Positions 6,310-37,928 of a DNA stretch of 64,000 nucleotides are shown here, in pieces (within the stretch, counting starts at the first letter, position 1; every line of letters starts with the position of its first letter). Position numbers and translations under genes: made by a program. Source of the stretch: Candidatus Poribacteria bacterium (GTDB lineage Bacteria > Poribacteria > WGA-4E > PCPOR2b); assembly GCA_965116925.1 (NCBI GenBank), contig OZ220744.1:2336001-2400000 (forward strand), in the 5' to 3' direction. The notes beneath the pieces are model-generated. The model ran no database searches. It worked only from the letters and a program-made list of their open reading frames with translations, and was not told the DNA's origin.

Positions 6310-6342
6310 TAATTCATTGAAAACAGAAAGGGAGATATTTCC

Positions 6343-10608: not shown

Positions 10609-12951
10609 CTAAAAACCTGGTCCGATTGTGAAGTGGAATTTCCCTCTACCGCTTTCAATTTCTCGATCAAACCCGTAGCCCCATTCAAGGCGTGCCAACA
10701 TGCCCATCAGATCAAAGCGAACTCCGACGCCCGCGCCTTTCTTGAGTGTAAAATCACTGAAGACGTTCGGAATGCTTTCGTCCCATACCTGTCCTACATC
10801 AAAGAACGCAACGGCGGTCAACTGATTTGCAAGTGGAATGCGATATTCCAGATTCGCGTAGAGGACTTTGTTACCGCCATTAAAGTTAATTTCGCCGTTC
10901 TTGTTTCTGGGAAAGATTTCAAAGTCCTCATAACCGCGGACGGTGTCGATGCCGCCGAGCCGGTAGCGCTCATAGTATAGGAATCTCCAATCGCTACTTT
11001 GACTATTGAGGTATGATGCCCGCACATGGCCGGCGAGGACATGGTTAAACCAACTTCTAAAGAACCAACTTGAATCCGCGGAATATCTCTGAAACCTATT
11101 GTCCGCCCCGAAGAATCCACCTGCGTATTCATAAGAGAGGCTGTTGTGTGAGCCGGATACAGGTTCATGGAGACTTCGTTGATAGTCGCGTGTGTCTCTG
11201 GCGAGGCTGAAAGTTATACTGCGGGTGAGGCGACCATTGATCTCTTCCACCCCCGATCCGTATGCATCGACAGATTCATTTTTGAGACGAATTGATAGGT
11301 CTGTGTTTTTGGATAGGGGACGCCCGAACGTCAGAGACCCCCCGACCCGTTTATAGGTATATCGATCGTATCCCCGATCGCGAAAGATTGAGCCATAATA
11401 TCGATGCGTGCGCTGGGTGTTGTACAGGCTAGTACTGAAACGGGTTGGTGTTCCCAAGATCCAGGGGGTACTGAAGCGGAGTTCGCCGGTATGCCGATCG
11501 CGCGCCCCGAGTTCACCTTTCAGGTGTATCCGAAAAGCGCGTCCCCAGAGGTTGTTTTCACCAATCTGTGCTACCCCAAAGATGCCGCCTTCTGTGCCGT
11601 AGCCTCCACCAAGGCTGAGTAGTCCGGTGCGCGGTGATTCTGTGATGGTGACAATTAGATCTCGGATAGCACCTTCGGAATTGCTTGGAACGAACTCTAC
11701 GTTACGAATAAACGATCCCATCCGAAAGATTCGCTGTCGTGCTTTCCGTAGTGCCTGCACGTCGTAAAATTCTCCGGGTTTGATATCCAGTTGGTCCAAT
11801 TCGCGTCGGATAACGTAGTCTTTTGTTTTTTCTAAACCGTTGATGTGAACGTCGCCAATGATGATGACATCGCCTTCGGTGATGTTTAGCGTCAGGTCCA
11901 CAATACCGTTGATTTCATCAAAATCGGGGGATGCGTCCACTCGTGACAGGAGGTATCCTTTGTTTTGGTATTCTTCCTCAATCTTGGCAAGTGTTTCCTC
12001 GAACTCTCCGCGATTAAAAATTTCTCCTTCAGTCGGGCTCAACATATCGCGAATCTTTTCTTCGGAAAATGCGGGTTTTTCGGAGTGCGTGAGATTAACC
12101 GTATACGTCCCAACGATAAATTGTGGACCTTCATCAATAGCGATGTCGAGCATTAGTTCTGTTTTATCATCGGAAAATCGTTTGTCATGTTTAGTAATTC
12201 TTGCTTGATTGAATCCCCCGTCTTGGTAGTATCGCACTAAAGTGGTCAGATCTTCCTCGAAGAAATTCTCATCAAAATGCTTACCTGTTCGGGTTTTCAT
12301 CTGCTTGCTCAGTGATTTTGGTGCAAGATTATCGTTACCGATGAAGTTGATTTCTTGGACTTTAATCCGTTGCCCTTCCGTGATCTCAAATGTTACGGCT
12401 ATTGTGTTGGTGTCGGAATCAATATCCTTATGCGTTTGGACCTCTGCCAGAAAGTAACCTGCTTCTTTGTACATTTTCAGGATATTCTGTTTGCTTTTCC
12501 AGAGCCGTTGCTCATTGAAAAGTTCTCCCGGTTTCAGATTGATTGCTTCTTTTATTTTTTTATATTTCAACTGCTCGTTGCCGATAATGTTGATGTTGCC
12601 CTCGATTTTAGGGTTTGGGATGAGTCGATAGATAACCTTCAATCCGCTCCCTTGAGCGGGTTCGACATCAACGAGAATGTCCTCAAAAAAGCCGGTATCC
12701 TTATAGAGGTTTTTGCTATCCTGTGATAACTGGTAAGGAGAGATTTCCTCGCCAACACGGGTTTGTATGATACTTTTAATTAAACCCTCTGATTCCTCCA
12801 TTATCCCTTCAAACTCGATCTCTTTTATCTGTAATGTCTCGTCAACTGTTTTCGTGGGCTTCGGTTCTTCCTCATCGGCAGCAAGGACTGTCGATAGCAT
12901 AACGCACATCAACCCCACTAATAAACCGATTCGCCAGCATATCACTTTCAT
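10609..12951 (-). CDS. bamA: Outer membrane protein assembly factor BamA
   Basis: POTRA domains, VRGY motif, C-terminal FHFTIGPGF. Confidence 0.95.
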   Translation of the reverse strand: MKVICWRIGLLVGLMCVMLSTVLAADEEEPKPTKTVDETLQIKEIEFEGIMEESEGLIKSIIQTRVGEEISPYQLSQDSKNLYKDTGFFEDILVDVEPAQGSGLKVIYRLIPNPKIEGNINIIGNEQLKYKKIKEAINLKPGELFNEQRLWKSKQNILKMYKEAGYFLAEVQTHKDIDSDTNTIAVTFEITEGQRIKVQEINFIGNDNLAPKSLSKQMKTRTGKHFDENFFEEDLTTLVRYYQDGGFNQARITKHDKRFSDDKTELMLDIAIDEGPQFIVGTYTVNLTHSEKPAFSEEKIRDMLSPTEGEIFNRGEFEETLAKIEEEYQNKGYLLSRVDASPDFDEINGIVDLTLNITEGDVIIIGDVHINGLEKTKDYVIRRELDQLDIKPGEFYDVQALRKARQRIFRMGSFIRNVEFVPSNSEGAIRDLIVTITESPRTGLLSLGGGYGTEGGIFGVAQIGENNLWGRAFRIHLKGELGARDRHTGELRFSTPWILGTPTRFSTSLYNTQRTHRYYGSIFRDRGYDRYTYKRVGGSLTFGRPLSKNTDLSIRLKNESVDAYGSGVEEINGRLTRSITFSLARDTRDYQRSLHEPVSGSHNSLSYEYAGGFFGADNRFQRYSADSSWFFRSWFNHVLAGHVRASYLNSQSSDWRFLYYERYRLGGIDTVRGYEDFEIFPRNKNGEINFNGGNKVLYANLEYRIPLANQLTAVAFFDVGQVWDESIPNVFSDFTLKKGAGVGVRFDLMGMLARLEWGYGFDREIESGRGKFHFTIGPGF

Positions 12952-19717: not shown

Positions 19718-21292
19718 TTATGCGTTTCGTCTGAGCTTGGAAGCGATCCAAGCTCGGTGGTGGTAGAGGATTAGGAGAACGCTCACAAGGAAACATAGGA
19801 TTGGGAACCAATCGCCGTAGCGCGTATAAACGGTTCCCCCGTGATTGCTCAATGGGATCCTCGCTACTAGGAAATTTTCTGTATCATTAGCTTGAATCGG
19901 CGGCGTGGTTATCCTGCCGAGCGCATCAATTATACACGATATGCCTCCGTTGGCGCAACGGAAAACGGCTACACGGTTTTCGACTGCGCGGAAGGGTGCC
20001 ATAGCAAGATGCTGTTCTGGGGCTGCTGTTCCGTCGAACCACGCATCGTTGGTAAGGATTCCCATGACGGACGCCCCTTTTTTGACAAATTTGCGGAAGA
20101 GGTTCGGGAACACGGACTCAAAGCAGATTACGACTCCCATTTGGCTGTTTTCCGTGCGAGGAATGGGAAAGAGATCGATTGATTTTCCCGGCTCAAATCC
20201 GGAGGAGAGTTGGATAAAGTTGGGGAGGTGACGGGTGATCGGGACGTATTCGCCAAAGGGGACAAGGTGCATCTTGGAGTAGCTGCCAAGTTTTTCGCTG
20301 GTCGGGGATAGCAGGAACACGGTGTTATACATTTTTCCGTCGAGGGCCGTATGCGTTCCTGTGAGCAGGTGTATCTGCCTTTCATTTAGTATCTGCTTCA
20401 ATTTTGCGAGGTAGACGTTCCCTTCAAAGATGAATATTCTGCCGTGCAGAGCGGTTTCAGGCAGCACGATGAGGTCGGGTTCTTCGGCGTCTGCTGCTTT
20501 TACTAGATTCATATATCTCTCAAAGATTTGGGGCAAGTATGTGGGATCCCACTTTTCGATCTGTGGCACATTGCCGGGGACAAGGGCAATTTTGACATCT
20601 GAGGCGGTCTTAATGGGCTTGGACAACACTTGTGCGCCGTAGATAAGGCAGGCGATGACAATCACGATGGGAATGATGCGTGAAACGTGAAACGTGAAAC
20701 GTGAAGAGGTCTTAGGGGCAGTCGGTTGGTTTTTGGATATGAAATGAGTGTGGACTATATCTGCGATTGTAGTGTTGAGGAGGACGACGATGAAACTGAT
20801 ACCGTGTACGCCTGTGAATGATGCGATCTGGATTGCTGGTAGGTTATTCCACTGCGTATAGCCCATGCTGCCCCACGGGAAACCTGTCAGAAACCAGCTT
20901 CGCACCCATTCTAACCCTATCCATATCGTAGGCACGATGAAGATGAAGGGCAGCCCGGATTTCCATGGGAGTCCATGTAGCAGCGCAGAAAAAATGCCGA
21001 AGTATACCGCGAGATAGCCTGCGAGCAGCAGGCAGGCGAATGTGGTCAGGAAGATGTTTGCAAAGGGATAGAGTAGGGCGATCCAGTAGATCAGTCCGAG
21101 GAAGAAGATTGCGCCGGTGAGGTAGCCGTGTAGAAAAGCGGACTTCCAAGTGGACGTGGATTGTAGGGCAATCAGTAGGGGGATAAGGCTGATCCATGCC
21201 AGTGGGTAGAGGTTGAAACTTGGGAAGCTGAGGATGAGTAGGATGCCGGATATACAGGCGAGGATCCAGGTTTGGTAGCGTTTTATGTGCAT
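19718..21292 (-). CDS. lnt: Apolipoprotein N-acyltransferase
   Basis: GFPW, LPETA, KMHLVPFGEYVP, ICFES, TNDAWF, RAVEN, ANGGIS. Confidence 0.95.
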   Translation of the reverse strand: MHIKRYQTWILACISGILLILSFPSFNLYPLAWISLIPLLIALQSTSTWKSAFLHGYLTGAIFFLGLIYWIALLYPFANIFLTTFACLLLAGYLAVYFGIFSALLHGLPWKSGLPFIFIVPTIWIGLEWVRSWFLTGFPWGSMGYTQWNNLPAIQIASFTGVHGISFIVVLLNTTIADIVHTHFISKNQPTAPKTSSRFTFHVSRIIPIVIVIACLIYGAQVLSKPIKTASDVKIALVPGNVPQIEKWDPTYLPQIFERYMNLVKAADAEEPDLIVLPETALHGRIFIFEGNVYLAKLKQILNERQIHLLTGTHTALDGKMYNTVFLLSPTSEKLGSYSKMHLVPFGEYVPITRHLPNFIQLSSGFEPGKSIDLFPIPRTENSQMGVVICFESVFPNLFRKFVKKGASVMGILTNDAWFDGTAAPEQHLAMAPFRAVENRVAVFRCANGGISCIIDALGRITTPPIQANDTENFLVARIPLSNHGGTVYTRYGDWFPILCFLVSVLLILYHHRAWIASKLRRNA

Positions 21293-21433
21293 ATTAGCTT
21301 AATGGAGTATTTTGAATGTATCCTTTTTTCGCTTCGAGAGCTTCGGCAATTCAGCGCACAACATTAATTTACTGAATTCGTTTTAATCAATAATTCTTTT
21401 ACTTGCTGCCTTACTTACTTCCTGTGCACAGAA

Positions 21434-21796
21434 TTATTCGTATTCGATAATTGCGGCGATTGCCGCGGTAATCTCTTGCATAAGTATTGCGCTGAGTCTG
21501 CCTCGTCTGCTAATAAAGCGTGTCACATCCACTCCCCGAATTTGCAGCGTGTCAACGGCTGAAACTTTTGTCAGGCCGTTCATACCACTGGGTTCAATAT
21601 AAACATGCCAGATGTTTCTTGAAAACCGGTTTTGCCAACCGGTGATTGGGGATACCAACTTAATCGGCAAATGTCCCACGCCGTCGGAACTAATAACTAC
21701 AGCGGGACGGATTTTCTGAATCTCTGCGCCAATCGTCGGATCGAAGTTTAGATCCCAAACCTCTCCCCGACGCGGATTAGGTGGATTTGTATTCAA
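21434..21796 (-). CDS. PemK/MazF family toxin (endoribonuclease)
   Basis: PRRGEVWDLNFDPTIGAEIQKIRPAVVIS, NGLTKVS, DTLQIRGVD; overlaps the end of the upstream gene; exact start uncertain (TTG 21796 or 21814). Confidence 0.9.
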   Translation of the reverse strand: MNTNPPNPRRGEVWDLNFDPTIGAEIQKIRPAVVISSDGVGHLPIKLVSPITGWQNRFSRNIWHVYIEPSGMNGLTKVSAVDTLQIRGVDVTRFISRRGRLSAILMQEITAAIAAIIEYE

Positions 21797-23309
21797 CGAG
21801 GTCTCCCCCTTCAAGTTCGCGCCATTCGGGATCGTTTTGGTAGTATTCGACCATCCGCTTTGCTTGTTCCCTCAGTAGGCTGCGCCTCGAATCTGTTGGT
21901 AGTTCTAAAAAAGCACGACGTTCAAGAAGCGATTGAGGTGAAGGAATTTCTAGGGTAGTATTAAGCAATTGGTCAGCTTCTCGCGCTTCTATTACTCCTT
22001 CGGAAAGCGCACGAAACACCTGCTGATGAAATCGCTCTGGTTTTTCGGAAGGTATCTCAATCGGTTCCCGTTTTTTCCAACCCAATTTGTTAATGTCCAT
22101 CCACCACCGCTTATAATGAGAGGTATTAATAATTCGCAAATCCTTCAACCGATAAAGAATTGCTTGAATACTCATTCCGTAACGCCGCTTGAGGTACAAA
22201 AGTTCCTCTAGTTGAATATGGCTTCGCTTCTCACCAACTTCCCGGCGCAAGTGCTCGGCCGGCGCGAGGAAAGCAGCACCGAATCGGAAAGCAGCTTTTT
22301 CTTCATTAATACTTTCACTCAATTTTAGGATCAGATGTCCAAGTTCGTGTACCATGTTGAGTCGATGCCGGTCTCCCGGGGTGTCTCGGCGCGTTGCGAC
22401 TGCTGCCGCCAGCACATTTTTGTCGTTATCTCGCACCACAGCAGAGATGCCATCAAAAGTTTCACTGGCATCAACCTCAATGATGTGGATGAAGTGATCT
22501 TCAAGCACACTCACAAGGTTTGCAATTGGATCAATGCCAAGGTTCCATTGCTGGCGAAGCGCGAGGGCTGCACCTTCGGCGTCTCCCAGTTTGTGGACAG
22601 GGAAACCTTGAATCGGGAGTTCAAGGCTGCTCCGTTCACCCATTCGCTCCAGTAGGGAGATCCGTTTCTCTAACACCTCAGCGACAAAACTCTGTAGCTG
22701 TTCCTGTTCTTTCTTACGCATGCGAGCTCGCTTCCGATAGGCAACCCATTCCACCTGATAAGTTGATTCGCCCCACAATTGAGCAGATTTAATTCCCAAT
22801 GCAGCAGCGATTCGATTGAGTGTCATCACCTTGGGTTGCATCTTTCCGCGTTCATATTTTGAAAGTGCTTGCTTGCTAACCAGTCCATCAATAGCAGCCT
22901 CTAGGTCGTCAAGCGACATGCCACGGGCAAGTCTAAATCGCTTCAGCCGTTCACCCACCATGATTGCAGTATCTCTTTGTTCAGTTGTAGGATCTTCTTT
23001 TCTGATGTCCATTGAAGACGATTTCTTGCGTGTCGAGGATTTCAGGATTTTACCGGAAGCCTCCATCACTCCAATTGTTGTGTCTTTGTAGTGCTCCAAA
23101 GCCGCCTCAGTGGCTTTGGCGTCCACCCCAACCACGTAAACAGGACCTCTGTATCCTCTAAGCTGCTGGGCGGCATTTGTAACAGTGTCGGCTGTCTCTA
23201 CCTCAATGATTTGATGAGGCGTTTTAATATCTGGACCTGGGCCCTGATTATAAGAAACGCCTTCCCGAGCCGCGATAAGTTTGGCAGTTTTGTCATGTTT
23301 GGTTGGCAT
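21777..23309 (-). CDS. XRE-HTH / ImmA-IrrE metallopeptidase fusion with extra N-terminal domain and antitoxin-like C-terminal tail
   Basis: HTH: GERLKRFRLARGMSLDDL...VSKQALSKYERG; zinc motif HELGH (HExxH), FGAAFLAP; about 95-aa N-terminal domain; tail RRSLLREQAKRMVEYYQNDPEWRELEGGD. Confidence 0.85.
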   Translation of the reverse strand: MPTKHDKTAKLIAAREGVSYNQGPGPDIKTPHQIIEVETADTVTNAAQQLRGYRGPVYVVGVDAKATEAALEHYKDTTIGVMEASGKILKSSTRKKSSSMDIRKEDPTTEQRDTAIMVGERLKRFRLARGMSLDDLEAAIDGLVSKQALSKYERGKMQPKVMTLNRIAAALGIKSAQLWGESTYQVEWVAYRKRARMRKKEQEQLQSFVAEVLEKRISLLERMGERSSLELPIQGFPVHKLGDAEGAALALRQQWNLGIDPIANLVSVLEDHFIHIIEVDASETFDGISAVVRDNDKNVLAAAVATRRDTPGDRHRLNMVHELGHLILKLSESINEEKAAFRFGAAFLAPAEHLRREVGEKRSHIQLEELLYLKRRYGMSIQAILYRLKDLRIINTSHYKRWWMDINKLGWKKREPIEIPSEKPERFHQQVFRALSEGVIEAREADQLLNTTLEIPSPQSLLERRAFLELPTDSRRSLLREQAKRMVEYYQNDPEWRELEGGDLVEYKST

Positions 23310-23373
23310 TATTTTGTCCTCACATGGTATTCAATGAAGAATTGAGTTTACAAACAGCCCTCAAATCTGCCTA

Positions 23374-23402
23374 ATTATGAATCAAACGGATTAATTTTTC
23401 AA
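23374..23402 (-). promoter_or_regulatory. Sigma70 promoter of the XRE-peptidase/MazF operon
   Basis: TTGAAA-17 nt-CATAAT on the minus strand; region homologous to the pAgo promoter. Confidence 0.7.
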
Positions 23403-23592
23403 GGGAAAAAAAACTAAGGAGAAGAGGGATTTCTTGCACAGTCAAAGTGGGGCAAGGAGGAGGATGCTAGAGAGGCAGTAGGTAACTATTGAATTGAGTT
23501 CAAAAATCAACCGTCGTCATTAGTGTCACATAGATTATCTTTGATATGAGACTTCTGTGGGAGTTGGAAAAGATTTTTCATCAATAGGATCT

Positions 23593-24504
23593 TTATCTTA
23601 GCCGGTCTAATCTTTTTTTTAATTCTGACCGATTAAAGCCTTTTATTCTAAACACCCAATCGACGATCTTCTCTTTAAACAGATTAAGGATTTTTATTTT
23701 ATCTAGCATAATCCCCATCAATCCAACAATTAGGATTCCTATTAGAGGAACAAAAATCTGAATAACACCAATAATTGGTTCTGCTTCAGTCCATTTTCTG
23801 ATGATTAAGGGGACCAACCAATAAGATATAGAACCGAAAAGAAGAACGCTCACCACCATTATGGTGATTTTGACACGGCGTTCAGTTCTTTCTATGAAAC
23901 GAACAAAAGCATCTCTTATATAACCGATGGCTTCCACTTGATGAACAATCGGATAATCCACCAATGCTTTTGAGTACGCTTGTTCGATTACATAAAAATC
24001 CCTCAAATCTGATGTTTCTAGCAAGGCGTGCAGTAAAAGAGGTTGCCATTCTTCCTGTGGAAATTCGCCCTTGTAAAGATCTAACGCGACTTTGTCAATG
24101 GATCTCTGGGGTTGCGGTGGATTAGAAGAGATATCTGGAAACAAGCGGTTGAGAATATAAAAATCCCTTGTTGAATGATTCTGGCAATATGATTTTAGAT
24201 TTCCCCTTTCTAGTTCAACATTATCTATCGCCATTGCGGATAGGTCAATTAAATTCTTCGTGTAGTGCATCCCGCTTATTGGTCGCTTTCTCCTTTGTGC
24301 TTCTATCAAGTTTGTTAAGTCTTCTTTCGACGGAATACCAGTGCAGAAAATTGAAAGGCAAATTTTTTCAATCTCAGCCAAATCGCCTTCTGTTGGATAA
24401 TTCAAAGGTTTCCTCACTAAAAATCCATAAAACGCTCGTTCCTTTAAGCTGGACTTATCAAGAAGAATCTGCTGTTGTTTTCTTAATTCATCAGTGATGG
24501 GCAT
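23593..24504 (-). CDS. Argonaute-associated membrane protein (putative effector), 303 aa
   Basis: ATG 1 nt after the pAgo stop; soluble N-terminal domain, two C-terminal hydrophobic helices (ITIMVVSVLLFGSISYWLVPLII; IIGVIQIFVPLIGILIVGLMGIML), basic tail; AT-rich like pAgo. Confidence 0.75.
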   Translation of the reverse strand: MPITDELRKQQQILLDKSSLKERAFYGFLVRKPLNYPTEGDLAEIEKICLSIFCTGIPSKEDLTNLIEAQRRKRPISGMHYTKNLIDLSAMAIDNVELERGNLKSYCQNHSTRDFYILNRLFPDISSNPPQPQRSIDKVALDLYKGEFPQEEWQPLLLHALLETSDLRDFYVIEQAYSKALVDYPIVHQVEAIGYIRDAFVRFIERTERRVKITIMVVSVLLFGSISYWLVPLIIRKWTEAEPIIGVIQIFVPLIGILIVGLMGIMLDKIKILNLFKEKIVDWVFRIKGFNRSELKKRLDRLR

Positions 24505-24505
24505 C

Positions 24506-26533
24506 TTATATGAACCAAAGTTTATCATTTAATTTATCCAGAATCGCATAGTCCCAATCGGGTACTTTTTTAAGTTCATATACCATTTTCGCCATGAGGT
24601 TTGGATATTTTATGGTAACAGGTTTACTAGCAGGAATAAATGAACGGTAAGAAAGGTGAGTAAAATAAAGTACTTGTCTCGTGATTTCGTAAATGTCCCT
24701 GTATTCTGACCTTTTATCCAATCGTACCTGTATTGGAACAACAGAACGACCTCCCAAGTGAAGCAGTGCTTGTCGATATGACAACTGAATAAACGTTCCG
24801 CGAGCCGGTGCGTGGCGTCCTTGATTCGCGAAAATTCTGAAGTTGTGATTGTAGCTGAGATGCACCAGACTATATTGAATATCATACGCCTTAAAATGTT
24901 TGAGGGCATTACTAACAGCTTCCAATTCATACTCCCTGCCCGCCTCCTTAAATAAGTGAAATATAAGTCGAACCCTATCTCCTTCTGATAAACCTTGCTT
25001 ATCGAAAGCTTGCACCAGAGTATCTATAAGATACCTTTCAAGATTTTTTGCATATTCGCCCATTGTGCTTAATTGGCTACAATCTCCAACAAGATACGTA
25101 CCATTATAATCAAAAACGTTGGCAAAACCGATAATCCATTCTCCACTATCGTCAGTCGTGGACCCGACTCCTATAATGAGCTCAGAGATATCTTTTTGAG
25201 ATTTCTCTATTGTCCACGCTGTACCCCCGAGTTTAGAATAGACATTGAGAGCAAAATCATTGTTTATAATATCATCATTTTTTCTAAGAACCTCTATTGT
25301 TAGATCTTGAGTTGGTAGTCGTTGGTTCAATAACTTCGCTTTTGTCAAATAATAGGGGGACCGAAGCGTATCAATTTCCTTGTCCTGCTGAGAGAGAAGG
25401 ATGATAGCCAAATTATAATCATTGGCATCTATCTTATCTAAAACGTCAAGGTAAGTTTCTTGCGATTTCACTGTTTTCAGATGAAATTTAACATTCTTTA
25501 AATGGAACAAATCTCGCAATTTATTACCCAATGTCACGATATATTCTTCGATGCTTCCTTCATATTCATCAGGAGAGACAACAAGAATATTCAACCTTTC
25601 ATTGCTAAAAAGATCGAGTGAATACGGACCCAATTCGGATACAACCTCGTTGTAATATCCCGGTCTACTCCTTTCATTGTAATAAAAGTACTTGGGTTTC
25701 CGGATACATGTTGAATTAAAAGAGGCACTTGGCAGGTTAACAAGTATGAAGTTTGAGATTTCCAGTCCGTTTGGAATATAAAGCTTTGATGCAACTTTGT
25801 TGAAGTTCTCAGCACACTTTTTAAGATATTCAAATTCATTACTTGACGATTCTATTCGGTCAAGGTATTTTTCGTAATCTTGCTGCAGTCCTGTCGATTC
25901 TAAGTATCTATAGAGATTATGAGCTGAAGCGACAATTTCTCCTTTATCATTTCGCGTCAACCCACGGGTATCTGTTAAATGACTCGTTATTACTTCTTCA
26001 CTACCAGTAAAAATTGGTTTCATGCGTCTTCTAACAGTTAAAGCAATAACTTGTCTTTTTTCCAGTTTGGAGTAAAGGTTCCTAAGAGAAAATACTAAAG
26101 TTGGCTGCAGAGATAAAGCTCCAAATTGCCTCCGTTTCTCGCTCTTTGATTCGACTTCCCAAGTCGAAGAGTGTTTTTGCCAAAAAACTCGATAATCATT
26201 GCTTCTGAAAAACGTCACAATAGCAAACTCTACGATTTTTGTGAAAATCGGAGCATGTTCTTTAATAGTTATTGTGGCTTCCTCAAAAATGCCAGGCAAT
26301 GATTCGCTAGTTGGCTGAATTTTCCAGATGTATAAGTCACCAGCAGATCTGTAGATGAAGAAATCCGGGTGCTTCTTATACTTAGTGTACAGATCATCTG
26401 AATACGCTGCCTTTAGCAAAGACAGCTTATCTTTATTGAAAACCGTCTCTAAAAAATTGAGCGTCAATCCCTGTCCTATTGGCATAGATTCTTGGGGAAT
26501 ACGGCGGGCAGCTGTGTTATATTTCGTTGACAT
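24506..26533 (-). CDS. Prokaryotic Argonaute, long-B (RsAgo-like), catalytically inactive PIWI
   Basis: MID 5'-phosphate pocket Y-K-Q-K (YYLTKAKLLNQRLPTQ...NVYSKLGG); PIWI motifs PARGT, QVLYFTHLSYRS, PVTIKY, terminal LWFI; catalytic Asp positions replaced (IIGVGS, IFHLFK). Confidence 0.92.
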   Translation of the reverse strand: MSTKYNTAARRIPQESMPIGQGLTLNFLETVFNKDKLSLLKAAYSDDLYTKYKKHPDFFIYRSAGDLYIWKIQPTSESLPGIFEEATITIKEHAPIFTKIVEFAIVTFFRSNDYRVFWQKHSSTWEVESKSEKRRQFGALSLQPTLVFSLRNLYSKLEKRQVIALTVRRRMKPIFTGSEEVITSHLTDTRGLTRNDKGEIVASAHNLYRYLESTGLQQDYEKYLDRIESSSNEFEYLKKCAENFNKVASKLYIPNGLEISNFILVNLPSASFNSTCIRKPKYFYYNERSRPGYYNEVVSELGPYSLDLFSNERLNILVVSPDEYEGSIEEYIVTLGNKLRDLFHLKNVKFHLKTVKSQETYLDVLDKIDANDYNLAIILLSQQDKEIDTLRSPYYLTKAKLLNQRLPTQDLTIEVLRKNDDIINNDFALNVYSKLGGTAWTIEKSQKDISELIIGVGSTTDDSGEWIIGFANVFDYNGTYLVGDCSQLSTMGEYAKNLERYLIDTLVQAFDKQGLSEGDRVRLIFHLFKEAGREYELEAVSNALKHFKAYDIQYSLVHLSYNHNFRIFANQGRHAPARGTFIQLSYRQALLHLGGRSVVPIQVRLDKRSEYRDIYEITRQVLYFTHLSYRSFIPASKPVTIKYPNLMAKMVYELKKVPDWDYAILDKLNDKLWFI

Positions 26534-26589
26534 TTTCCTACTCCTTAATAATATGAATTTGGTTTACAAAAATTTGAGAAAATCGCCAT

Positions 26590-26618
26590 ATTATAAACCA
26601 AACAAATTAATTTAGCAA
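26590..26618 (-). promoter_or_regulatory. Sigma70 promoter of the pAgo operon
   Basis: TTGCTA-17 nt-TATAAT on the minus strand; AGGAG upstream of the pAgo ATG. Confidence 0.75.
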
Positions 26619-26926
26619 GGAAAAAAGGATCTGCTGCAAAATTAAAGTAGGAATAGGAGGGATACTACTGGAGTTCAGGCTGAATTCTGCGTAACGATTT
26701 ACAAATCAGTTACTACAAAGAAGGGGCTGCGTTTCCACGGAATAGGTTTTTCTATCTTGAGAGGAGGTATCAGTAAGGTATTTGACGGGCGGGAAACCCC
26801 GCCCCTACAGGAAGGATAACCGATGGATTTTCAATAAGTAGCAACTCGGGTTTGCATAACAATCTTGATTTAGACACTGGTTTAAATATCCAATGGCATT
26901 ACACTTCTTCCCTTCAATCCGGCGAT

Positions 26927-29146
26927 TTAGGAAGCATCGCCATAAAATGACTGATTTAACGTCTTATCTTCCTCACTGACACCAAAATCCCCGTCCTCTA
27001 TCTCAGAAAGGTTTACATACAATTGGTTCTTATCCAATAGTTTCGCTAGACATTTCTTCTGTTTGTCTATCCCGTTTTCATCTTGACCGATTTCGATGAA
27101 ATCCTCCACCGCATCTTCCGGGACTTCCGGATTCACGTACCAGTTTAGGAATGAGTTTTCAGCGATGTCCCACCAGATTGCGACAAGTTCTTCAGAGGAT
27201 TGAGCGACTTTGATTTTGTCCATAAAGGCTTGATTGTATGGCATCAGTTCGCAATAGATGAAATCGCCGCCGCCCTGATAGTTGACGGATTTGGAGATCC
27301 CGCCGGTGTCGTAGTCAATTTCTTCGATTGGCTTTCCCTCTGCCTTAACTTTTTTGCCGACAGCTTTTTTGAGCCTCCCCATTGTGATGGTTTCCGTGTA
27401 ATCCATCTGTTCAATCGTAATCCATTGTCGGTTCATCTTGTGGGCAACCGCGGCGGTGGTAGCAGAACCTGCGAAGAAGTCGATAACAAGGTCTCCCTCA
27501 ATTGTTGACATTTCTATAATGCGCTTAATTGTTTCTTCAGGTTTCGGGTTGTCAAAGGTTTTGCCATCAAACAACCGTTTCAAGTGTAAAGTTCCCCTTT
27601 CGGAGTTAACTTCTTTATCCCACCATACAGAACGAGCCATACGAGAAGTACCTCGATATTTTTCAACTATTTGATAACGATTCTTCTCTTGCATCGCTTT
27701 GCCACAGATATTGGTATTGAGGTTTTGTTGCGATTTCTCCTTACCCCAACGCCAAACGGTTTGTACGCCCTGAGACTTTGCCGGCAATACTTCGACGAAT
27801 CCTTGATTTTTTTCTAAAGCAATTTCAAAAAAACCATTCTTATCCTGATTCTTCGGATTAAGATAAAAAGGATATACGAGATTTGGACGATTTTTATCAT
27901 TGAACTTTATATTTCTGTTCCGAAGTTCTCTTATCTCAAACCCCCCCCCTTCATCTTCATAAGGAAAGGTTTTATCTTTGTCTTCAATTGGATAAATTTT
28001 ATAGCTATTTGACCTTGAAAAAACATTAATGAATTCGTGCATGTTTGCCACTCCACCATAATCCCTGCCACGAGGATTATTGACTACAGTGATTACCTCA
28101 ATAAAATTTTCATTACCGAGTACCTCGTCCATCAAAACTTTGAGGTACGCTTGCTCGTTATCATCACATTGAACAAAAATAACCCCGTCGTCCCGTAACA
28201 ATTCTCTCGCTACTTCTAACCGATTTTTCATAAACGTCAGCCATGAGGAATGATTAAAGCTATCGTTATAGCCGAAACTATCGCTTCCTGTGTTATACGG
28301 TGGGTCAATGTAAATCAGTTTGACCTTTCCGCGAAACTGGGTTTTCAGAGTGTGCAATGCCAGTAGGTTGTTCCCTTTGATAAGCAAGTTTTCCCGAATT
28401 ACGCCGTTACCATCCCGCTTAATCTCTGTCACCTTCCCCTCACCGTCAGTCGTGTAGCGTTTCCAACCAGTCAACACTTTTGGGTCAAAGAGGCGGTCAA
28501 TCTCGTCTTGCGCTAGGATTTCATTAAAAAATATTTCTTGGCGCTTCTCCTCCTCCTTTGTTTGTCCACCTTCTAGTACACAGTCTTTGTAGGGCCAAAC
28601 CAGAGAAACTTCACCCCGTTCAGGCAGAAATTTGTCCTCAACCTTCAAGCCGATTTTGTTGCGGAAGCGGGTGTAGGAATTGGCGAGGAAGTTTTTGTCG
28701 GAGATGTAGTCAATGAAGGTATTGGTGTTGAAGATATAGTGCCCTTCGATCTCGTCAAAGAATTTTGCCTTCATGTCCGCATCACCCAGCAGCAGCCTCA
28801 CGAAGTCATGGTCAATCTTCCACGCCCGATCTATCACCGCCGCCTTGACTAGCTCGCTTTCGTTGTCAATGAAGCGGCGATCAGTTTTGAGGATGTTGGT
28901 TAATTTTTCGTGAAAAGGCTTTGGCGTGTTAGCATGGCTTTTTCCGGAGGTCGCTGAAGGCAGTGTACTGCCATCTTGTTGATATAGTTCGACGGTCTCC
29001 TCAACAATGCGGCATAGCTCTGAGAAAACCTCTTGTTCATTATCCCCGTGACAGCCACCATAAAAGAGTCCGGGACAACTGCCAACATAGCATTGGTCTT
29101 CATCAGACCATTCGACAATTTTGACGTAACGGTTGCTTGTATTCAT
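26927..29146 (-). CDS. mod: Type III R-M adenine methyltransferase (Mod) with N-terminally fused HicB antitoxin domain
   Basis: IYIDPPYNTG and DFFAGSATT motifs, central TRD; residues 1 to about 70 are HicB-like (YVKIVEWSDEDQCYVGSCPGL...CHGDNEQEV), in frame with no stop. Confidence 0.88.
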   Translation of the reverse strand: MNTSNRYVKIVEWSDEDQCYVGSCPGLFYGGCHGDNEQEVFSELCRIVEETVELYQQDGSTLPSATSGKSHANTPKPFHEKLTNILKTDRRFIDNESELVKAAVIDRAWKIDHDFVRLLLGDADMKAKFFDEIEGHYIFNTNTFIDYISDKNFLANSYTRFRNKIGLKVEDKFLPERGEVSLVWPYKDCVLEGGQTKEEEKRQEIFFNEILAQDEIDRLFDPKVLTGWKRYTTDGEGKVTEIKRDGNGVIRENLLIKGNNLLALHTLKTQFRGKVKLIYIDPPYNTGSDSFGYNDSFNHSSWLTFMKNRLEVARELLRDDGVIFVQCDDNEQAYLKVLMDEVLGNENFIEVITVVNNPRGRDYGGVANMHEFINVFSRSNSYKIYPIEDKDKTFPYEDEGGGFEIRELRNRNIKFNDKNRPNLVYPFYLNPKNQDKNGFFEIALEKNQGFVEVLPAKSQGVQTVWRWGKEKSQQNLNTNICGKAMQEKNRYQIVEKYRGTSRMARSVWWDKEVNSERGTLHLKRLFDGKTFDNPKPEETIKRIIEMSTIEGDLVIDFFAGSATTAAVAHKMNRQWITIEQMDYTETITMGRLKKAVGKKVKAEGKPIEEIDYDTGGISKSVNYQGGGDFIYCELMPYNQAFMDKIKVAQSSEELVAIWWDIAENSFLNWYVNPEVPEDAVEDFIEIGQDENGIDKQKKCLAKLLDKNQLYVNLSEIEDGDFGVSEEDKTLNQSFYGDAS
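27941..27949 (-). repeat. G9 homopolymer inside mod
   Basis: Nine C on the + strand, encoding GGG of EDEGGGF. Confidence 0.7.
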
Positions 29147-29340
29147 TTTTTCGATTCCTCAATAGCGGCTTTGACAGCTTTTTCCTGATAGTGCTTTGCG
29201 TCAGCACGGAGTTGGCCTGAGAGTATCACAGATTTAGGAACTTTCGGATGGACAAATTTCCGATGACTCCCTTTTCCGCCACGGTTTACAAATCCAGCAG
29301 TTTCAAGGTCTTTGGTGAGCTCTCTTATCTTACGTGGCAT
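29143..29340 (-). CDS. hicA: HicA family toxin
   Basis: GFVNRGGKGSHRKFVHP signature; ATGA overlap with the HicB-Mod fusion. Confidence 0.9.
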   Translation of the reverse strand: MPRKIRELTKDLETAGFVNRGGKGSHRKFVHPKVPKSVILSGQLRADAKHYQEKAVKAAIEESKK

Positions 29341-29522
29341 CTGCTATCTGTGCTTGTCTGTAAGTTCATTGGTTTGTTAGTGAGCGTTGGGTTTCACTCT
29401 GGTTATCTGTAAGCGATGTTGTTGAAAAGTAAAAACTTTACTGTTCTTGATAGCGAGACACTTTCAACCGTTCAACCTAACCTACAATACTTGAGGTTAC
29501 GGCATACAGAGTATGCCTACTA

Positions 29523-32075
29523 CTATAACACGGACTCAAGACTTTCCCTGAATTGTCTTTCATCTTGGTTGTCATAGAATGGCACACCAATCAGTCGGTA
29601 TTTTTGCATCCCGCGTTGCGTATTAAACTCCAGAACCTCCCCTGCAAATTTTTCTTTAATTTGTTCTAAGAAGTCCGCTTTCCATTTTTCGTGTTTTTGC
29701 AGATACTTTCCCTTGGGTTCAATAAATATCTGACGGATGAGGGTGTTTCCGTTTTTCTCATGCAGAAACAGAACAAAATCGGGCTCAAACCCCTCTCCGT
29801 CGTCAAAGTTGTAAATTTTGAAATGCCTTTCGTTACGGATCAGATATATCCCGTCGTATTCCCTCTTTAACTCGTCCATTTGGGCGTCAAGCATTCGGAC
29901 AAATGCCTTTTCTTCACTGGTGCCGTAATTGGCATTGAATACATACCACTCTCTATCGGAGACCAACTGTTCGTCGCCATCCGCCCTTTCGTTGCCTTCA
30001 ACCAATTTAAGGATTTTGTCGGTGAAGATTGAATTGATATTGCTTGGCTCAAACGTTTCTGTGCCTTTGTATTCGGTTCTGTTTTGACGCAATTCAGATG
30101 CAATTTGATTAAGCAATCCTGTCATCGCATCAAGGTAAGTTTCATTAGACAACAGGTATCGTTCATCGCCCTGAAGGGTGATTGACAACCCACCCAAGTA
30201 TTCATCCGCCTTAATGAACTGGCGGACGGATTGAATATGTGGGAAATAGGTTTTCAGAGACTTGAAAGCAAAAAAAGGATTTCGTGCAATAGCAGCTCTG
30301 ACGATATGGAACGGTATATCTCCTACCGGAATATTTCTCCGACCTGATTCTACAATCTGTTGAACCTCACCGCTGTCCTCCAGAACCGCCTCAGAAACAC
30401 CCCTACCGGTGGCGAGTGAATAGCGGTAATTCTTCAAGGAAACGTCGAGATCGGCAAATGAACGGACAGATTCATTCCTGTTCTTAACCCGTTCATTGAT
30501 GTAGATAATCCCGCGCTTGTAAAAATCGGTCTCCTTAAACTCACTTTTTAGCTTAAGGGGTTTTTCAACCGTCCGCTCGTCAAGTATCCCTTCGTCAATT
30601 AGGGCGGTACGGATTTCAGAGATATAGCGGGAATCGTTGACACTGTGATAGTGGAGCTCTTCCAACACCCGTAGTTCCGTCGTAAGATTTTTGTCGAATT
30701 TCCGTCGGTATTGATCCGGATAGTCATCGGTAGCAAAGGGGAAGTACCGCGCTCCGCGTCCGATTAGTTGCGCTTCTGCAATTGTTGTTTTGCCCGGTTT
30801 TCCTGCCCTTGCGTCGCGGGTGGTGTAGCACCGAACAATATCAAACAGATTTAAGACATCCCAACCTTCATCCAGTTTACGCACGGCAAAGATAGCGCGG
30901 ATGCGGTTGTTGGGGTCCTCAAGCGTGTTGATCCGAATCTGATAGTTCTTTTCGTCTTGTTCCTTGTTGACTGAGAGGCAGTATGCTCTCTGAAATTCCT
31001 GTTTTAGACGTCCGACCAGATTGATGTTATTCTCGTCAAAAAATTGAAATGCCCGTTGAACCAGTGGAATATTCGATTGACGGATATTGGCAATGTGCGC
31101 TGCTGTGAGACCATCAATGAGTCTGTGAAACTTCTCCTTGTTCGCTTCTGATTCGTCAATTTTGCGCTGTGCCTTAAACAGAATCACCGGCTTGAGGTTA
31201 ATCTGATGTTTTGCCGCTACCTCCTGTTTATACTGATTGAGAATCAGTGCCTGTATGATGCGATCTCTTTCCTCAAAATCTGCCTGAACGATAAAGACAT
31301 CTTTGGAATAGCCGTCATTGCGGAACTGCCGTAGATCATACTTATATAATACCTTGTTGCGGTATTTATCGGCAAGGCTGCGATGGTTATAATCGAGGGT
31401 GGCAGTAAATTCTAGCAGCAAGTTGTCTGGATTTTGACTAAAGATACGCTCTACCGTATTTTCCCAGCTTTCTATCAACTCCTGTCCGGCTTTCGTACTG
31501 GTGTTGATATGGTGTGCCTCATCAGCTAAGAGCACAATCTTTTTGTCCTTGAAATCCTCGAACGTTAAAGCATTTTCTTTCTGTGTATTCAGATCGATAT
31601 GCAGCTGTTGGATGGTGGTGAAGCAGATATTGATGTCGTTTTCGTTGACACCCTCAAAATTGGGGACCGGTGTCACGGGGACACGCATCGATCCGAAATG
31701 GAGGGTTTCATTGAACAGGTATTTAGAGGACAGAGGATTGAGGAAATTGTCCTTTGTCTTTTCGATGATATTGGTGGAGTTGACGAAGAAGATAAAATTT
31801 CGATAGCCTTTTTCATAGAGATAGAGGATCAAGCCCGCCATGATGAGCGTTTTACCGCTGCCGGTCGCCATATTGAACAGAAGATGCAGGGGCTTTTCTT
31901 TGCCCGGAAAGTGATTGTCAAGGCAATAAAAGAAACGTGCAAAGGCTTCTTCCTGATACGGGCGGAGGTCAAACTTGGGATTCAGATTGTCTTTGAGATA
32001 GTTGGGAATTTCCTTTTCCAAAAATCCCATTTCGGATACATTATCAAGTCTTTGGTACAAAAACTGTTCAGCCAT
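29523..32075 (-). CDS. res: Type III restriction enzyme Res subunit (SF2 helicase plus PD-(D/E)xK nuclease)
   Basis: MATGSGKT, DEAH, EFTAT, LDEGWDVLNLFDIVR, QLIGRGAR, EPDF...IEPKG. Confidence 0.92.
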   Translation of the reverse strand: MAEQFLYQRLDNVSEMGFLEKEIPNYLKDNLNPKFDLRPYQEEAFARFFYCLDNHFPGKEKPLHLLFNMATGSGKTLIMAGLILYLYEKGYRNFIFFVNSTNIIEKTKDNFLNPLSSKYLFNETLHFGSMRVPVTPVPNFEGVNENDINICFTTIQQLHIDLNTQKENALTFEDFKDKKIVLLADEAHHINTSTKAGQELIESWENTVERIFSQNPDNLLLEFTATLDYNHRSLADKYRNKVLYKYDLRQFRNDGYSKDVFIVQADFEERDRIIQALILNQYKQEVAAKHQINLKPVILFKAQRKIDESEANKEKFHRLIDGLTAAHIANIRQSNIPLVQRAFQFFDENNINLVGRLKQEFQRAYCLSVNKEQDEKNYQIRINTLEDPNNRIRAIFAVRKLDEGWDVLNLFDIVRCYTTRDARAGKPGKTTIAEAQLIGRGARYFPFATDDYPDQYRRKFDKNLTTELRVLEELHYHSVNDSRYISEIRTALIDEGILDERTVEKPLKLKSEFKETDFYKRGIIYINERVKNRNESVRSFADLDVSLKNYRYSLATGRGVSEAVLEDSGEVQQIVESGRRNIPVGDIPFHIVRAAIARNPFFAFKSLKTYFPHIQSVRQFIKADEYLGGLSITLQGDERYLLSNETYLDAMTGLLNQIASELRQNRTEYKGTETFEPSNINSIFTDKILKLVEGNERADGDEQLVSDREWYVFNANYGTSEEKAFVRMLDAQMDELKREYDGIYLIRNERHFKIYNFDDGEGFEPDFVLFLHEKNGNTLIRQIFIEPKGKYLQKHEKWKADFLEQIKEKFAGEVLEFNTQRGMQKYRLIGVPFYDNQDERQFRESLESVL

Positions 32076-32136
32076 TATAAATTCCCTTTAACTAGGATAG
32101 CTCAAGTTGCGACGTACCCTATAATTCTGTACATTG

Positions 32137-32201
32137 CGCTCCGCTGGAGCGCGGAGATTAAACATATCGCCCATCTATAGACATATCGCTCCGCTGGAGC
32201 G
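32137..32201. repeat. Pair of short palindromic repeats CGCTCCGCTGGAGCG
   Basis: Identical 15-mers at 32137-32151 and 32187-32201. Confidence 0.6.
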
Positions 32202-32574
32202 AATAAGAGAATCTCAACTCTCTTGTTGGTCCATCTGGATAAATGCTAGGCACGGTTGCCGCCGTAGTGGGAGAAGCTTCTAGCCTTGATATGCGTTCTC
32301 AAGTGCTGCACCGCTGTGATTCAGCCAATAATCCGTGCAATCTGTGCCATCAGTTTAATCCGCGATTCAGACAAGGGATACATGTCGCCCCTCTGGGGCT
32401 AAATGCACCAATGCACCATCTCCCGTCTCCCGTTCCGTTTTCTATCCTGTAAATCCTTCAATCCCCGATGAAGCATCGGGACTAAGAAGCCTGAAGATCC
32501 TGATTCAGACAATAATGCGGAGTTACGGCACACGGAGTGTGCCTACTACTATAAAAAGAAAAAATCCTCCGGTG

Positions 32575-32790
32575 TCAAATGCAACAGCTTTTTAGGCAAT
32601 TTTCAACGATACGACACAGCTCTGAGAACACTTCTTGTTCATTATCTCCGTGACAGCCACCATAAAAGAGTCCCGGACAACTGCCAACATAGCATTGGTC
32701 TTCATCAGACCATTCGACAATCTTGACGTAACGGCTGCTTGTATTCATTTTTTTGATTCCTCAATAGCGGCTTTGACAGCCCTTTCTTGT
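32575..32790 (-). pseudogene. Truncated duplicate of hicA 3' end plus hicB 5' part
   Basis: About 190-bp direct repeat of 29001-29188 (offset 3602); hicB copy 32748-32575 stops after 57 aa; only the last ~14 hicA codons remain. Confidence 0.85.
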
Positions 32791-32795
32791 AGACA

Positions 32796-33968
32796 CTAGG
32801 CACGATTGCCGCCGTAGGTGGAGGACAGATGTGTGTCTTCTGTGAAACGCCCTCCACGTAATGGCGTGATGTCCACCGTGCTGGCAGCACCGTCTGCGAT
32901 GAGTTCTGCCATACATAGTCCAATGGCTGGCGAGATCTTGAAGGAGTGACCACTGCCGCCTACGGCAAGGTAGAGCCCCTCGACATCGGGGCTTTTGTCC
33001 AAGATCATGTTCCAGTCGGGGGTGACGGTGTATAGACCGCTCCATCCTTTAACGAACATTGCATCTTCCATTACTGGGAGCCGGTGGCTCAGGCGACGAG
33101 CGACGTCCTCGACAAAATCGCGGGAAACATCGCGTGAATATTGGTCGGGATCTGTCAGTTCGTTCTCTTTGGGGTGACCGACACCGATGAGGAGCCTCCC
33201 ACGCTGCTCAGGACGCCAATAGGTTCGATCTACCATGTTGGAAACGGAGTGACGCATGGGCGGTATATCCGCGGGTATTCGAGCGACGACTTCTGATTCG
33301 CGTGTAACTTTGAGAGGGAGGTCTAGCCCCACCCAACCCCCCACCGCTTTCGCCCAAGGTCCGGCGGCATTGACGACAACGGGTGTACTAATCTCGCCGT
33401 AATCCGTGACGACGGCAGAAACGCGCCCATTACTCAGTTTAATATCGCGGGCAGGGGTCTGGAGGTAGACTTGTGCGCCGTTGCTTTTGGCTTTGGCGGC
33501 GAAGGCACTCACCATGCCGTGGGGGTCTACATAACCGGAGTCCGGCTCGTGAGCCACGCAGCCGATCCCTTCCATATTTAAGCCCGGTAGTGCTTCGGCA
33601 GCATCTTCCAATGAAACCTCCCAAGTCCGTACACCCAACCGCTTCAGTTGTGCCATATTGTCATGGAAAATATCGGCAGCCTCCGGTGGGACCAAAAAAT
33701 ACCAACCGACGTTGTGAAGGACTTCTGCTCCATCAAACATTTCGGGAAAGCGCTGGAAAATTTCGAGGCTCTTCTTGACAAGACGGATACTGACTTCGTT
33801 GGAGTAGTGCTGACGCATAATTGCCGCTGAATCGCCTGTGGAACCGGCGCAGAGTAAGCCCTTCTCTAAGAGTACGACATTTCGCACGCCTTTAGCGGTT
33901 AGATGATACAGAAGGCTTGTGCCGATGGCACCTCCTCCGATGATGACTACATCGGCTGTCTTAACCAT
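32796..33968 (-). CDS. FAD-dependent oxidoreductase (DAO / sarcosine oxidase beta-like)
   Basis: VVIIGGGAIG, VVNAAGPWA, WSGLYTVTPD, GGSGHSFKISPAIG. Confidence 0.9.
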   Translation of the reverse strand: MVKTADVVIIGGGAIGTSLLYHLTAKGVRNVVLLEKGLLCAGSTGDSAAIMRQHYSNEVSIRLVKKSLEIFQRFPEMFDGAEVLHNVGWYFLVPPEAADIFHDNMAQLKRLGVRTWEVSLEDAAEALPGLNMEGIGCVAHEPDSGYVDPHGMVSAFAAKAKSNGAQVYLQTPARDIKLSNGRVSAVVTDYGEISTPVVVNAAGPWAKAVGGWVGLDLPLKVTRESEVVARIPADIPPMRHSVSNMVDRTYWRPEQRGRLLIGVGHPKENELTDPDQYSRDVSRDFVEDVARRLSHRLPVMEDAMFVKGWSGLYTVTPDWNMILDKSPDVEGLYLAVGGSGHSFKISPAIGLCMAELIADGAASTVDITPLRGGRFTEDTHLSSTYGGNRA

Positions 33969-37911: not shown

Positions 37912-37928
37912 AATGAGATGAAGCAGTG

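Follow-up and report, generated by a model that had tools for sequence, protein, structure and literature searches.

Abortive-infection systems endanger the host that carries them, which raises the question of how a cell holds them in check. Here we describe a 64,000-nucleotide stretch of the genome of a Candidatus Poribacteria bacterium, a symbiont of sponges (assembly GCA_965116925.1, contig OZ220744.1, positions 2,336,001 to 2,400,000), called the window below and used for all coordinates unless another locus is named. It contains four genes, for a prokaryotic Argonaute (pAgo), a protein with two trans-membrane (TM) segments, a fusion of an XRE-type helix-turn-helix (HTH) domain with a Peptidase_M78 domain (XRE-M78, or the regulator) and a MazF/PemK toxin. 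The first two are referred to as the cargo, and the promoters in front of the cargo and of the regulator as P_cargo and P_XRE. Comparison with related islands indicates that P_cargo is a copy of P_XRE and that different defense genes have occupied the place between them.

In Deinococcus and in the integrative and conjugative element (ICE) ICEBs1 a metalloprotease, IrrE (PprI) and ImmA respectively, removes an XRE repressor, DdrO or ImmR, after DNA damage. Several further systems are close to parts of the present locus, and they are described here as in the available passages of the papers cited. BPAM consists of a long-B pAgo and a trans-membrane effector, bAgaM; the C-terminal TM region of EabAgaM comprises 106 aa (10.1101/2023.03.09.531850). 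CapH and CapP are a repressor and a peptidase that respond to DNA damage, with single-stranded DNA activating CapP, and they occur in operons of the cyclic-oligonucleotide-based antiphage signaling system (CBASS) and in other immune operons (10.1101/2022.04.27.489752; 10.64898/2026.05.16.725639). The same preprints describe CapH-CapP fusions, one of which belongs to a DISARM locus and has a VapC-like gene as its neighbor. RmrA, the antitoxin of RosmerTA, combines an HTH with an ImmA-type peptidase, and ImmA-type proteins are known as hub antitoxins (Ernits 2023, PMC10440598). COG2856-Xre fusions in toxin operons are predicted parts of three-component systems, with PIN, RelE and xre tabulated as partners of COG2856 (Makarova 2009, PMC2701414). 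Finally, VapKSC is a case of a VapC toxin under the control of co-opted regulators similar to CapK/CapS (EMBO J 2026, PMC13373217).

The locus in the window resembles each of these in part. As in BPAM, its pAgo is nearest to long-B proteins and is followed by an overlapping gene whose product has its TM region within the C-terminal ~90 aa. This 311-aa protein resembles bAgaM (og_100) in position and architecture. The pair differs from BPAM in lying behind a regulator-type promoter; the available part of the BPAM preprint has only an unnamed HTH neighbor in a figure legend. With CapH/CapP the regulator shares an XRE HTH, an M78 zinc peptidase with HExxH and matches to capP, capH and the CapP structure 7t5t, and in four related islands (L002, L033, L034 and L036, see below) it is joined to a type II CBASS. 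It differs from them in a predicted N-terminal restriction-endonuclease-like domain, a long helical C-terminal part and a co-transcribed MazF, and also in its best family match, which is RmrA (1e-43), far above capP (3e-9). Like RosmerTA, the locus has an HTH and ImmA-type peptidase protein in a two-gene operon with a toxin; what sets it apart from RosmerTA and from the COG2856-Xre operons is the duplication of the promoter in front of a neighboring defense operon. It has the MazF/PemK toxin of MazEF but no adjacent MazE antitoxin gene. IrrE (3dti) is the best structural match of the regulator and DdrO the nearest relative of its HTH, but protease and repressor are here one polypeptide, unlike in IrrE/DdrO and ImmA/ImmR, and their targets would be mobile defense cargo and a toxin instead of repair genes or an ICE. 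VapKSC is likewise a case in which a DNA-damage-responsive family of immune-operon regulators also controls a toxin-antitoxin (TA) module, with a kinase/STAS sensor there and a peptidase/HTH protein here. At the present locus the gating of an operon and the control of a toxin may be combined in one protein. The literature searched contained no Argonaute system controlled by a regulator of the CapH/CapP or RmrA type, and supplementary tables of the preprints may list some; Argonaute is not mentioned in the available passages of the CapH/CapP preprints and the VapKSC paper.

Duplication of the regulator's promoter

A sequence-only reading of the window had assigned the four genes and arranged them in two co-oriented operons, each preceded by a homologous upstream region with a promoter of 17-nt spacing. 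The open reading frames (ORFs), all four of them on the minus strand, together with the Pfam and PADLOC matches, confirmed the first part (Table 1), and the upstream homology proved equally robust. The regions 23339-23410 and 26555-26626, which align over 72 nt with 71% identity and no gap, form the top direct repeat within 21200-27000. Their local alignment score of 30 was reached by none of 1000 shuffles (mean 10.8, maximum 17) and by none of 2000 low-GC windows of the genome (maximum 20). Both copies contain promoter-like sites with a 17-nt spacer, TTGAAA-17-CATAAT and TTGCTA-17-TATAAT. However, a promoter scan of the region gave 15 such sites where 11.8 were expected, and therefore the hexamers alone mean little; it is the upstream homology that counts.

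When 13 promoters of the genus (seven P_XRE and six P_cargo) were aligned, the homology was found to span ~170 nt, with a distal box at one end, the proximal box TTTGTAAAC at the other and the -35 and -10 elements between them. At the pAgo loci it reaches beyond the start codon: the pAgo ORF and the regulator gene agree at 25 of their first 36 nt, and the likeness stops after codon 12. No random window of the genome out of 200000 reached such a match (maximum 21). MPTKHD is the original start of the gene for the regulator's N-terminal domain (N-domain, see below), a gene of wide conservation, and the promoter was therefore copied from the regulator to the cargo and not the reverse.

P_cargo (E 4e-13) and P_XRE (E 5.5e-15) match a profile built from 11 promoters. 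In the 6.47-Mb genome this profile has four matches at E <= 6e-13, the next one being at E 0.78; as the four were themselves members of the profile, what is telling is the lack of any further match. The loci L033-L036, which were not in the profile, contain two matches each. All other loci with any match have one, except L038, where two are located before its tandem regulator copies. Moreover, P_cargo aligns over 209 nt, at 77% identity, with the sequence in front of the CBASS of L002. With at most two mismatches allowed, the P_cargo pattern was found nine times, in eight of 176 Poribacteria genomes and always before cargo or an XRE gene, and the reversed control pattern was not found at all in these genomes. 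A scan of metagenome contigs with the P_cargo pattern gave no match, and additional cargo types did not come to light.

The common architecture of the promoters is TTGACA-17-(GG)TTTAYAAT followed, after ~24 nt, by TTTGTAAACC. It includes an inverted repeat, the arms of which in P_cargo of the window are TTTGGTTTA (~26594-26602, over the -10 element) and TAAACCAAA (~26558-26566). A repeat of 8-10 nt with at most one mismatch is present in all six P_cargo copies and in seven of nine P_XRE copies from other genera. Its symmetry is preserved by changes on both sides, as seen from the comparison of TTTGGTTTA/TAAACCAAA (pAgo) with GATTGGTT/AACCAATC (CBASS) and of a second pair, AGTTTACAA/TTGTAAACT with GGTTTACAA/TTGTAAACC. 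An RNA hairpin is unlikely because the first arm overlaps the -10 element, and the simplest reading of the repeat is a putative symmetric protein-binding site. That the two promoters are under shared regulation we consider rather probable.

Exchange of cargo in related islands

The four genes make up the right half of an 11-kb defense island (~21393-32790), in which a type III restriction-modification (RM) system is followed by P_cargo with the cargo and then by P_XRE with XRE-M78 and MazF. A blastn search of the whole genome with both upstream regions led to a second locus, L002 (Table 1). It consists of a Mod remnant, a P_cargo homologue, a type II CBASS, a P_XRE homologue, XRE-M78 (84% identity) and MazF (88% identity), in this order, and also carries a Res remnant; the CBASS genes encode a Cap4-like SAVED nuclease, a CD-NTase, Cap2 (E1-E2) and Cap3 (JAB). 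Homologous to L002 are window positions 27270-26909 (L002 4645-5006, 85%), 26761-26559 (L002 5734-5940, 77%) and 23524-21393, which include P_XRE (L002 11204-13336, 87% over 2134 nt). These blocks end at the edges of the cargo and thus delimit a slot, occupied by pAgo-TM at 26558-23525 in the window and by CBASS at 5941-11203 in L002.

An orthologous island is found between recO and glyQS in four sister species. Three of these islands (L033, L034, L036) have the composition Res-Mod-CBASS. The fourth, L035 of genome G046, has Res-Mod and a degraded pAgo-TM pair, with P_cargo, XRE-M78 and MazF intact: its pAgo is cut at residue 319 with a fragment of an IS4/5-family transposase (DUF4096) adjacent (~11090-12875 of the oriented locus), and of the TM protein no more than the final 35 residues are left. 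CBASS is therefore present in place of pAgo-TM in four of the five recO-glyQS loci (L002, L033, L034, L036), and Res-Mod precedes the cargo slot in L033-L036, with remnants in L002. Judged from these sequences, regulator and toxin form a scaffold on which the cargo can be exchanged. The proposal that the XRE-peptidase acts on both promoters has in this way gained strong comparative support, the same regulator, MazF and duplicated promoter flanking CBASS in the second island and in three sister genomes.

The regulator

The 510-aa regulator matches HTH_3 (4e-12; the XRE HTH spans aa ~118-180) and Peptidase_M78 (6e-9). Its HELGH motif is located at residues 321-325, and H321, E322 and H325 are invariant among 38 sequences. 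Fourteen RmrA models of PADLOC match it with values from 1.1e-43 (residues 118-449) to 3e-23, and there are weak matches to capP (2.7e-9) and capH (1.4e-7); by sequence the regulator is an RmrA-type protein. With an AlphaFold2 model (mean pLDDT 78.3) Foldseek retrieved IrrE (3dti, E 3.8e-4, 168 columns) and CapP (7t5t, E 3.4e-3), both with probability 1.00, and the profile of the HTH is nearest to DdrO (9e-5). The C-terminal part is helical and ends in an acidic, Trp-containing tail (aa ~480-510), ...EWRE(L/W)EGG..VEY, which is conserved in the 38 sequences. Cys184, just behind the HTH, is nearly invariant in the same set; one may speculate that it is an element of a cleavage site or of a cysteine switch, a feature of CapP alongside its GAF domain.

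In addition to the HTH and the peptidase, the regulator contains the N-domain (aa 1-100; 23010-23309, minus strand). The model of this domain has a pLDDT of 93.7, and its best match in VIA-align was 3dnx (Z 8.6), with many PD-(D/E)xK nucleases following at Z 5-6.7, a range of scores in which PaqCI, Can1/Can2, NucS and YaeQ are found; Foldseek with the same model gave nothing at E <= 0.001. The structural matches of the model suggest a restriction-endonuclease-like fold. Residues H5, D27, E36 and E38 are invariant. Fusion of the N-domain to the regulator is restricted to this genus; elsewhere it is encoded by a separate gene, located just upstream or standing alone, and in most of the phylum it is a separate protein of 96 aa (60 clusters, no Pfam family).

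Stand-alone XRE proteins of 110-155 aa, 65-79% identical to the HTH part of the regulator, are encoded in G044 (C1:2854395-2854702) and in several g18 genomes. The copy in G044 lies behind a promoter that fits the P_cargo pattern with two mismatches. These proteins may be HTH-only paralogues sharing the operator.

MazF and its pairing with the regulator

The toxin is a full-length match to PF02452 (PemK_toxin, 5.3e-22; positions 1-108 of the 109 in the model), and its ORF overlaps the stop codon of XRE-M78. The sequence GGGGGAG lies six bases before the second in-frame TTG (21796), which is likely to be the true start. MazF matches no PADLOC family, RmrT included. No ORF of the MazE, AbrB or ribbon-helix-helix type was found on either strand of 21300-23600, and the sole neighbor of the toxin gene is XRE-M78.

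The pairing was followed in 37 XRE-M78 loci with 38 copies of the regulator, one 2.4-kb contig (G008) having been left out. In 28 of them a MazF-homologous sequence is situated directly downstream of XRE-M78, and in at least four of those (L040, L052, L065, L066) it is split or partial. Whether the regulator is the antitoxin of MazF we consider an evenly balanced question. Locus L038 (G034) contains a tandem module, with two XRE-M78 genes (72% and 66% identical to that of the window), each having a promoter copy and a MazF homologue downstream.

The cargo genes

The pAgo matches Pfam Piwi (8.7e-15) and, over residues 21-675, the PADLOC pAgo model PDLC02395, which is covered end to end (5.9e-220). 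Its nearest solved relatives are EcAgo of EcBPAN (23wq, 2.4e-40) and RsAgo (5awh/6d8a, ~1e-29), and it is classed here as long-B-like by these nearest solved sequences and the PADLOC model. Where the pAgo reads IGVGST and IFHLFKE, the aligned EcAgo has IGIGSA and IFHVQVK and RsAgo has VGMGLA and VFHAHRP, both of these being inactive proteins. We take the two strands to be those on which active Argonautes carry catalytic aspartates, the first (GxD) and the third (RDG). The pAgo is predicted to be catalytically dead from its likeness to long-B pAgos and from these presumed catalytic positions.

The gene of the 311-aa protein overlaps the pAgo stop by 23 nt. The protein has a soluble N-terminal part and two hydrophobic segments by the Kyte-Doolittle scale (~221-243 and ~249-275, within 219-285). 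It has no match in Pfam, PADLOC, PDB-sequence or Atlas searches, and its family is narrow, comprising 72 clusters that are all at least 47% identical. A homologue (48-57% identity) is found directly downstream of pAgo at all five pAgo loci outside the genus, and pAgo is paired with a TM homologue or, in L035, its remnant at all seven.

The G+C content is 0.492 for the whole genome, 0.484 for XRE-M78/MazF, 0.434 for CBASS and 0.379 for pAgo-TM, so that by this measure the cargo appears to be of foreign origin and the regulator pair resident. Assembled contigs of three metatranscriptome runs from two studies (X18-X20) contain parts of pAgo-TM at 90-98% identity, from which it follows that they come from related strains. 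One of these contigs crosses the promoter; such contigs cannot show transcription, start sites or levels, and DNA carry-over is possible.

Distribution in Poribacteria

Matches to the regulator at E <= 1e-20 were found in 72 of the 176 genomes, a count in which hits confined to the N-domain or to the HTH are contained as well; a near-full-length regulator is present at 39 places in 37 genomes. Pfam annotation of the genes next to XRE-M78 covered 78 of 156 representatives. It revealed both housekeeping neighborhoods (aspS, spermine synthase, Pup ligase/proteasome, mutS) and defense-like ones (PLD-SNF2 helicase with an Eco57I-type methylase and AAA_15, DndB, TGT/DpdA-like, TIR-TPR, Schlafen AlbA_2).

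A pAgo homologue occurs in seven of the 176 genomes, and the search of genome contigs for pAgo gave one locus, L001. XRE-M78/MazF stands beside pAgo-TM at two of the seven loci, both in this genus. At the five others a gene for a PAPS-reductase-like protein and/or an HNH_2 endonuclease, 55-77% identical between loci, is located upstream of pAgo (Table 1). These genes were considered as parts of a pAgo system and rejected: they are absent from the window and occur without pAgo-TM, the pair being found without pAgo beside clusters containing DndB or TGT (L038, L041-L045). They look like a conserved flank of a defense hotspot or a separate two-gene system.

Other features of the island

The island of the window is flanked by a gene for a DAO-family oxidoreductase and by lnt, a site different from that of the sister islands. 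Its conserved left part is listed in Table 1 with the other features.

Table 1. Features of the defense island in the window and of the related loci
Feature	Position	Strand	Basis or details
pAgo, 675 aa, cargo gene 1	24506-26533	-	Piwi and PADLOC pAgo
2-TM protein, 311 aa, cargo gene 2	23593-24528	-	Hydrophobicity, position beside pAgo
XRE-HTH/M78-peptidase fusion regulator, 510 aa	21777-23309	-	HTH_3, Peptidase_M78
MazF/PemK toxin	21434-21814	-	PemK_toxin
P_cargo regulatory region	26534-26761	-	-35 26613-26618; -10 26590-26595; box 26555-26570
P_XRE regulatory region	23310-23524	-	-35 23397-23402; -10 23374-23379; proximal box 23339-23354; distal box copy 23491-23506
Type III Res	29523-32075	-	Pfam/PADLOC; conserved left part of the island (26927-32075)
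HicA	29143-29340	-	Conserved left part of the island
Type III Mod with ~70-aa N-terminal extension	26927-29146	-	Conserved left part of the island
Second island, L002	G000:C1:5146001-5166000, ~2.8 Mb from the window		Same genome; between recO and glyQS
PAPS-reductase/HNH_2	L001 6142-7917; L068 ~6170-7900; L069 ~6170-7915; L070; L071

The stop codon of hicA overlaps the start of the type III mod gene (26927-29340, minus strand). The N-terminal extension of Mod, which has no Pfam match, may be a HicB-type antitoxin fused to Mod; a 91%-identical copy of its first 53 residues is located upstream of Res (~32590-32748). Just upstream of P_cargo lies a repeat element (26776-26860) with a G+C-rich hairpin (GTAGGGGCGGGG...CCCGCCCGTC), parts of which are found at many sites of the genome; Rfam has no family within 20000-33000. 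Elsewhere in the window, tRNA-Sec (37929-38022) adjoins selB (38117-40039), both on the minus strand within 37305-40039, and the same region includes a weak BrnA-antitoxin-like ORF (37305-37667, minus strand; E 0.0016, below the Pfam cut-off).

Proposed mechanism and alternatives

The best explanation of these data, to which we give about an even chance, is that the repressor-peptidase gates interchangeable abortive-infection cargo and probably also neutralizes MazF. The cargo would be a BPAM-type abortive-infection pair, in which the inactive long-B-like Argonaute senses invading nucleic acid and activates its 2-TM partner. The XRE-HTH/M78 fusion would be an autorepressor similar to CapH-CapP fusions and to RmrA, binding to the inverted repeat with the first arm over the -10 element and the second ~30-36 bp downstream; as this repeat occurs both at the fusion protein's own promoter and at the duplicate in front of the cargo, expression of the cargo would be kept low. 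The peptidase would be activated by stress such as damage or infection, the cue being, to judge from CapP, IrrE and ImmA, DNA damage or single-stranded DNA. Once active, it would inactivate the HTH part, derepressing both operons. MazF would be translationally coupled to the regulator and neutralized probably by it, most likely through the acidic Trp-rich C-terminal tail, so that loss of the regulator would free MazF as well.

We infer the DNA binding, the cue, the cleavage, the neutralization of MazF and the defense phenotype, and the whole chain, from repression of both promoters through cue and cleavage to induction of the cargo and release of MazF, is put forward tentatively. It is rather doubtful that the single polypeptide with its restriction-endonuclease-like sensor, XRE repressor, M78 peptidase and antitoxin tail is the master switch of a portable defense slot, one proteolytic event both derepressing, through the duplicated operator, whichever cargo fills the slot, pAgo-TM or CBASS, and releasing MazF.

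A number of observations weigh against the gating of the cargo by the regulator. Half-sites lying 30-39 bp apart are not what is usually seen with one XRE dimer, and the first arm is degenerate (7 nt with two mismatches) in all seven P_XRE copies of the genus. The loci with exchanged cargo all belong to one genus and derive from one ancestral island; they are not independent replicates and should be viewed as one evolutionary experiment in several states. The known systems also differ from the locus in several respects: in the available passages of the preprints the CapH/CapP regulators are upstream and divergent, whereas here the regulator is downstream, co-oriented and has its own promoter; the toxin is MazF/PemK without a PADLOC match to RmrT, unlike in RosmerTA; and MazF is not among the COG2856 partners of 2009 in the available part of PMC2701414. 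Finally, five of the seven pAgo-TM loci have no XRE-M78, MazF or such promoter within ~8 kb, and XRE-M78 is found without MazF at nine of the 37 loci and amid housekeeping genes such as aspS, Pup ligase/proteasome and mutS. These two distributions mean that the pair is autonomous and that the four-gene set is a lineage-specific assembly of two mobile units. The dedicated four-gene Argonaute system envisaged by the sequence-only reading thus has to be given up, XRE-M78/MazF having many unrelated contexts; the co-occurrence expected from it across the 176 genomes held at two of the seven pAgo loci and failed at five.

The same distributions are what one would expect if the locus consisted of two independent neighbors, a self-sufficient pAgo-TM pair of the BPAM type and an autonomous RosmerTA-like XRE-M78/MazF module, serving defense or stabilizing the island as an addiction module, with the promoter likeness as a relic of duplication or recombination. 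It is common knowledge that TA modules are frequent in defense islands, and the pair does occur amid housekeeping genes without defense cargo. RmrA-type proteins are moreover antitoxins of stand-alone TA defense systems, as stated in the available text of PMC10440598. However, a relic promoter is not expected to keep its inverted repeat by changes on both sides in two cargo lineages, nor to remain the only other match in 6.47 Mb, and a repressor that binds its own operator would also bind the near-identical site in P_cargo. We regard two independent neighbors as unlikely, though as the most probable of the alternatives.

A role of XRE-M78 as a CapH/CapP-type transcriptional gate only, with MazF as one more gated effector held by low expression or an unrecognized factor, appears improbable. 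It would agree with the CapP- and IrrE-like fold and with the intact XRE-M78 at the loci where MazF is lost (nine of 37) or broken (at least four: L040, L052, L065, L066), but MazF is encoded on the regulator's transcript with an overlapping stop and is therefore made whenever the repressor is made. Unneutralized MazF is toxic, as established for type II TA systems, and the ORFs of the module include no other candidate antitoxin.

Least probable of all is that the conserved flanks of the cargo serve above all the exchange of cassettes by recombination and that P_cargo is read by another factor, e.g. a controller of the type III RM/HicA genes: homology blocks ending exactly at the slot borders, an orthologous recO-glyQS site with different cargo and a 3495-nt DNA contig (run X2) spanning just the slot and P_cargo would all fit, but P_cargo copies the regulator's own promoter and first codons, the island has no other HTH gene, and the roles of recombination handle and operator are in any case compatible.

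Implications

Systems based on pAgo have so far been treated as constitutively present sensors. The present locus is a concrete case of an Argonaute pair apparently wired to a damage-responsive repressor-peptidase, and the wiring is modular, as the same scaffold of promoter, regulator and toxin carries CBASS in sister genomes. It also suggests how regulated slots originate, namely by duplication of the regulator's promoter and first codons in front of incoming cargo, and hints that RmrA-type antitoxins and CapH/CapP-type regulators are two faces of one family. If gating of the cargo by the regulator is true, the locus would be the first case of a prokaryotic Argonaute system under transcriptional gating, and one regulator would be both the gate of an immune operon and a type II antitoxin.

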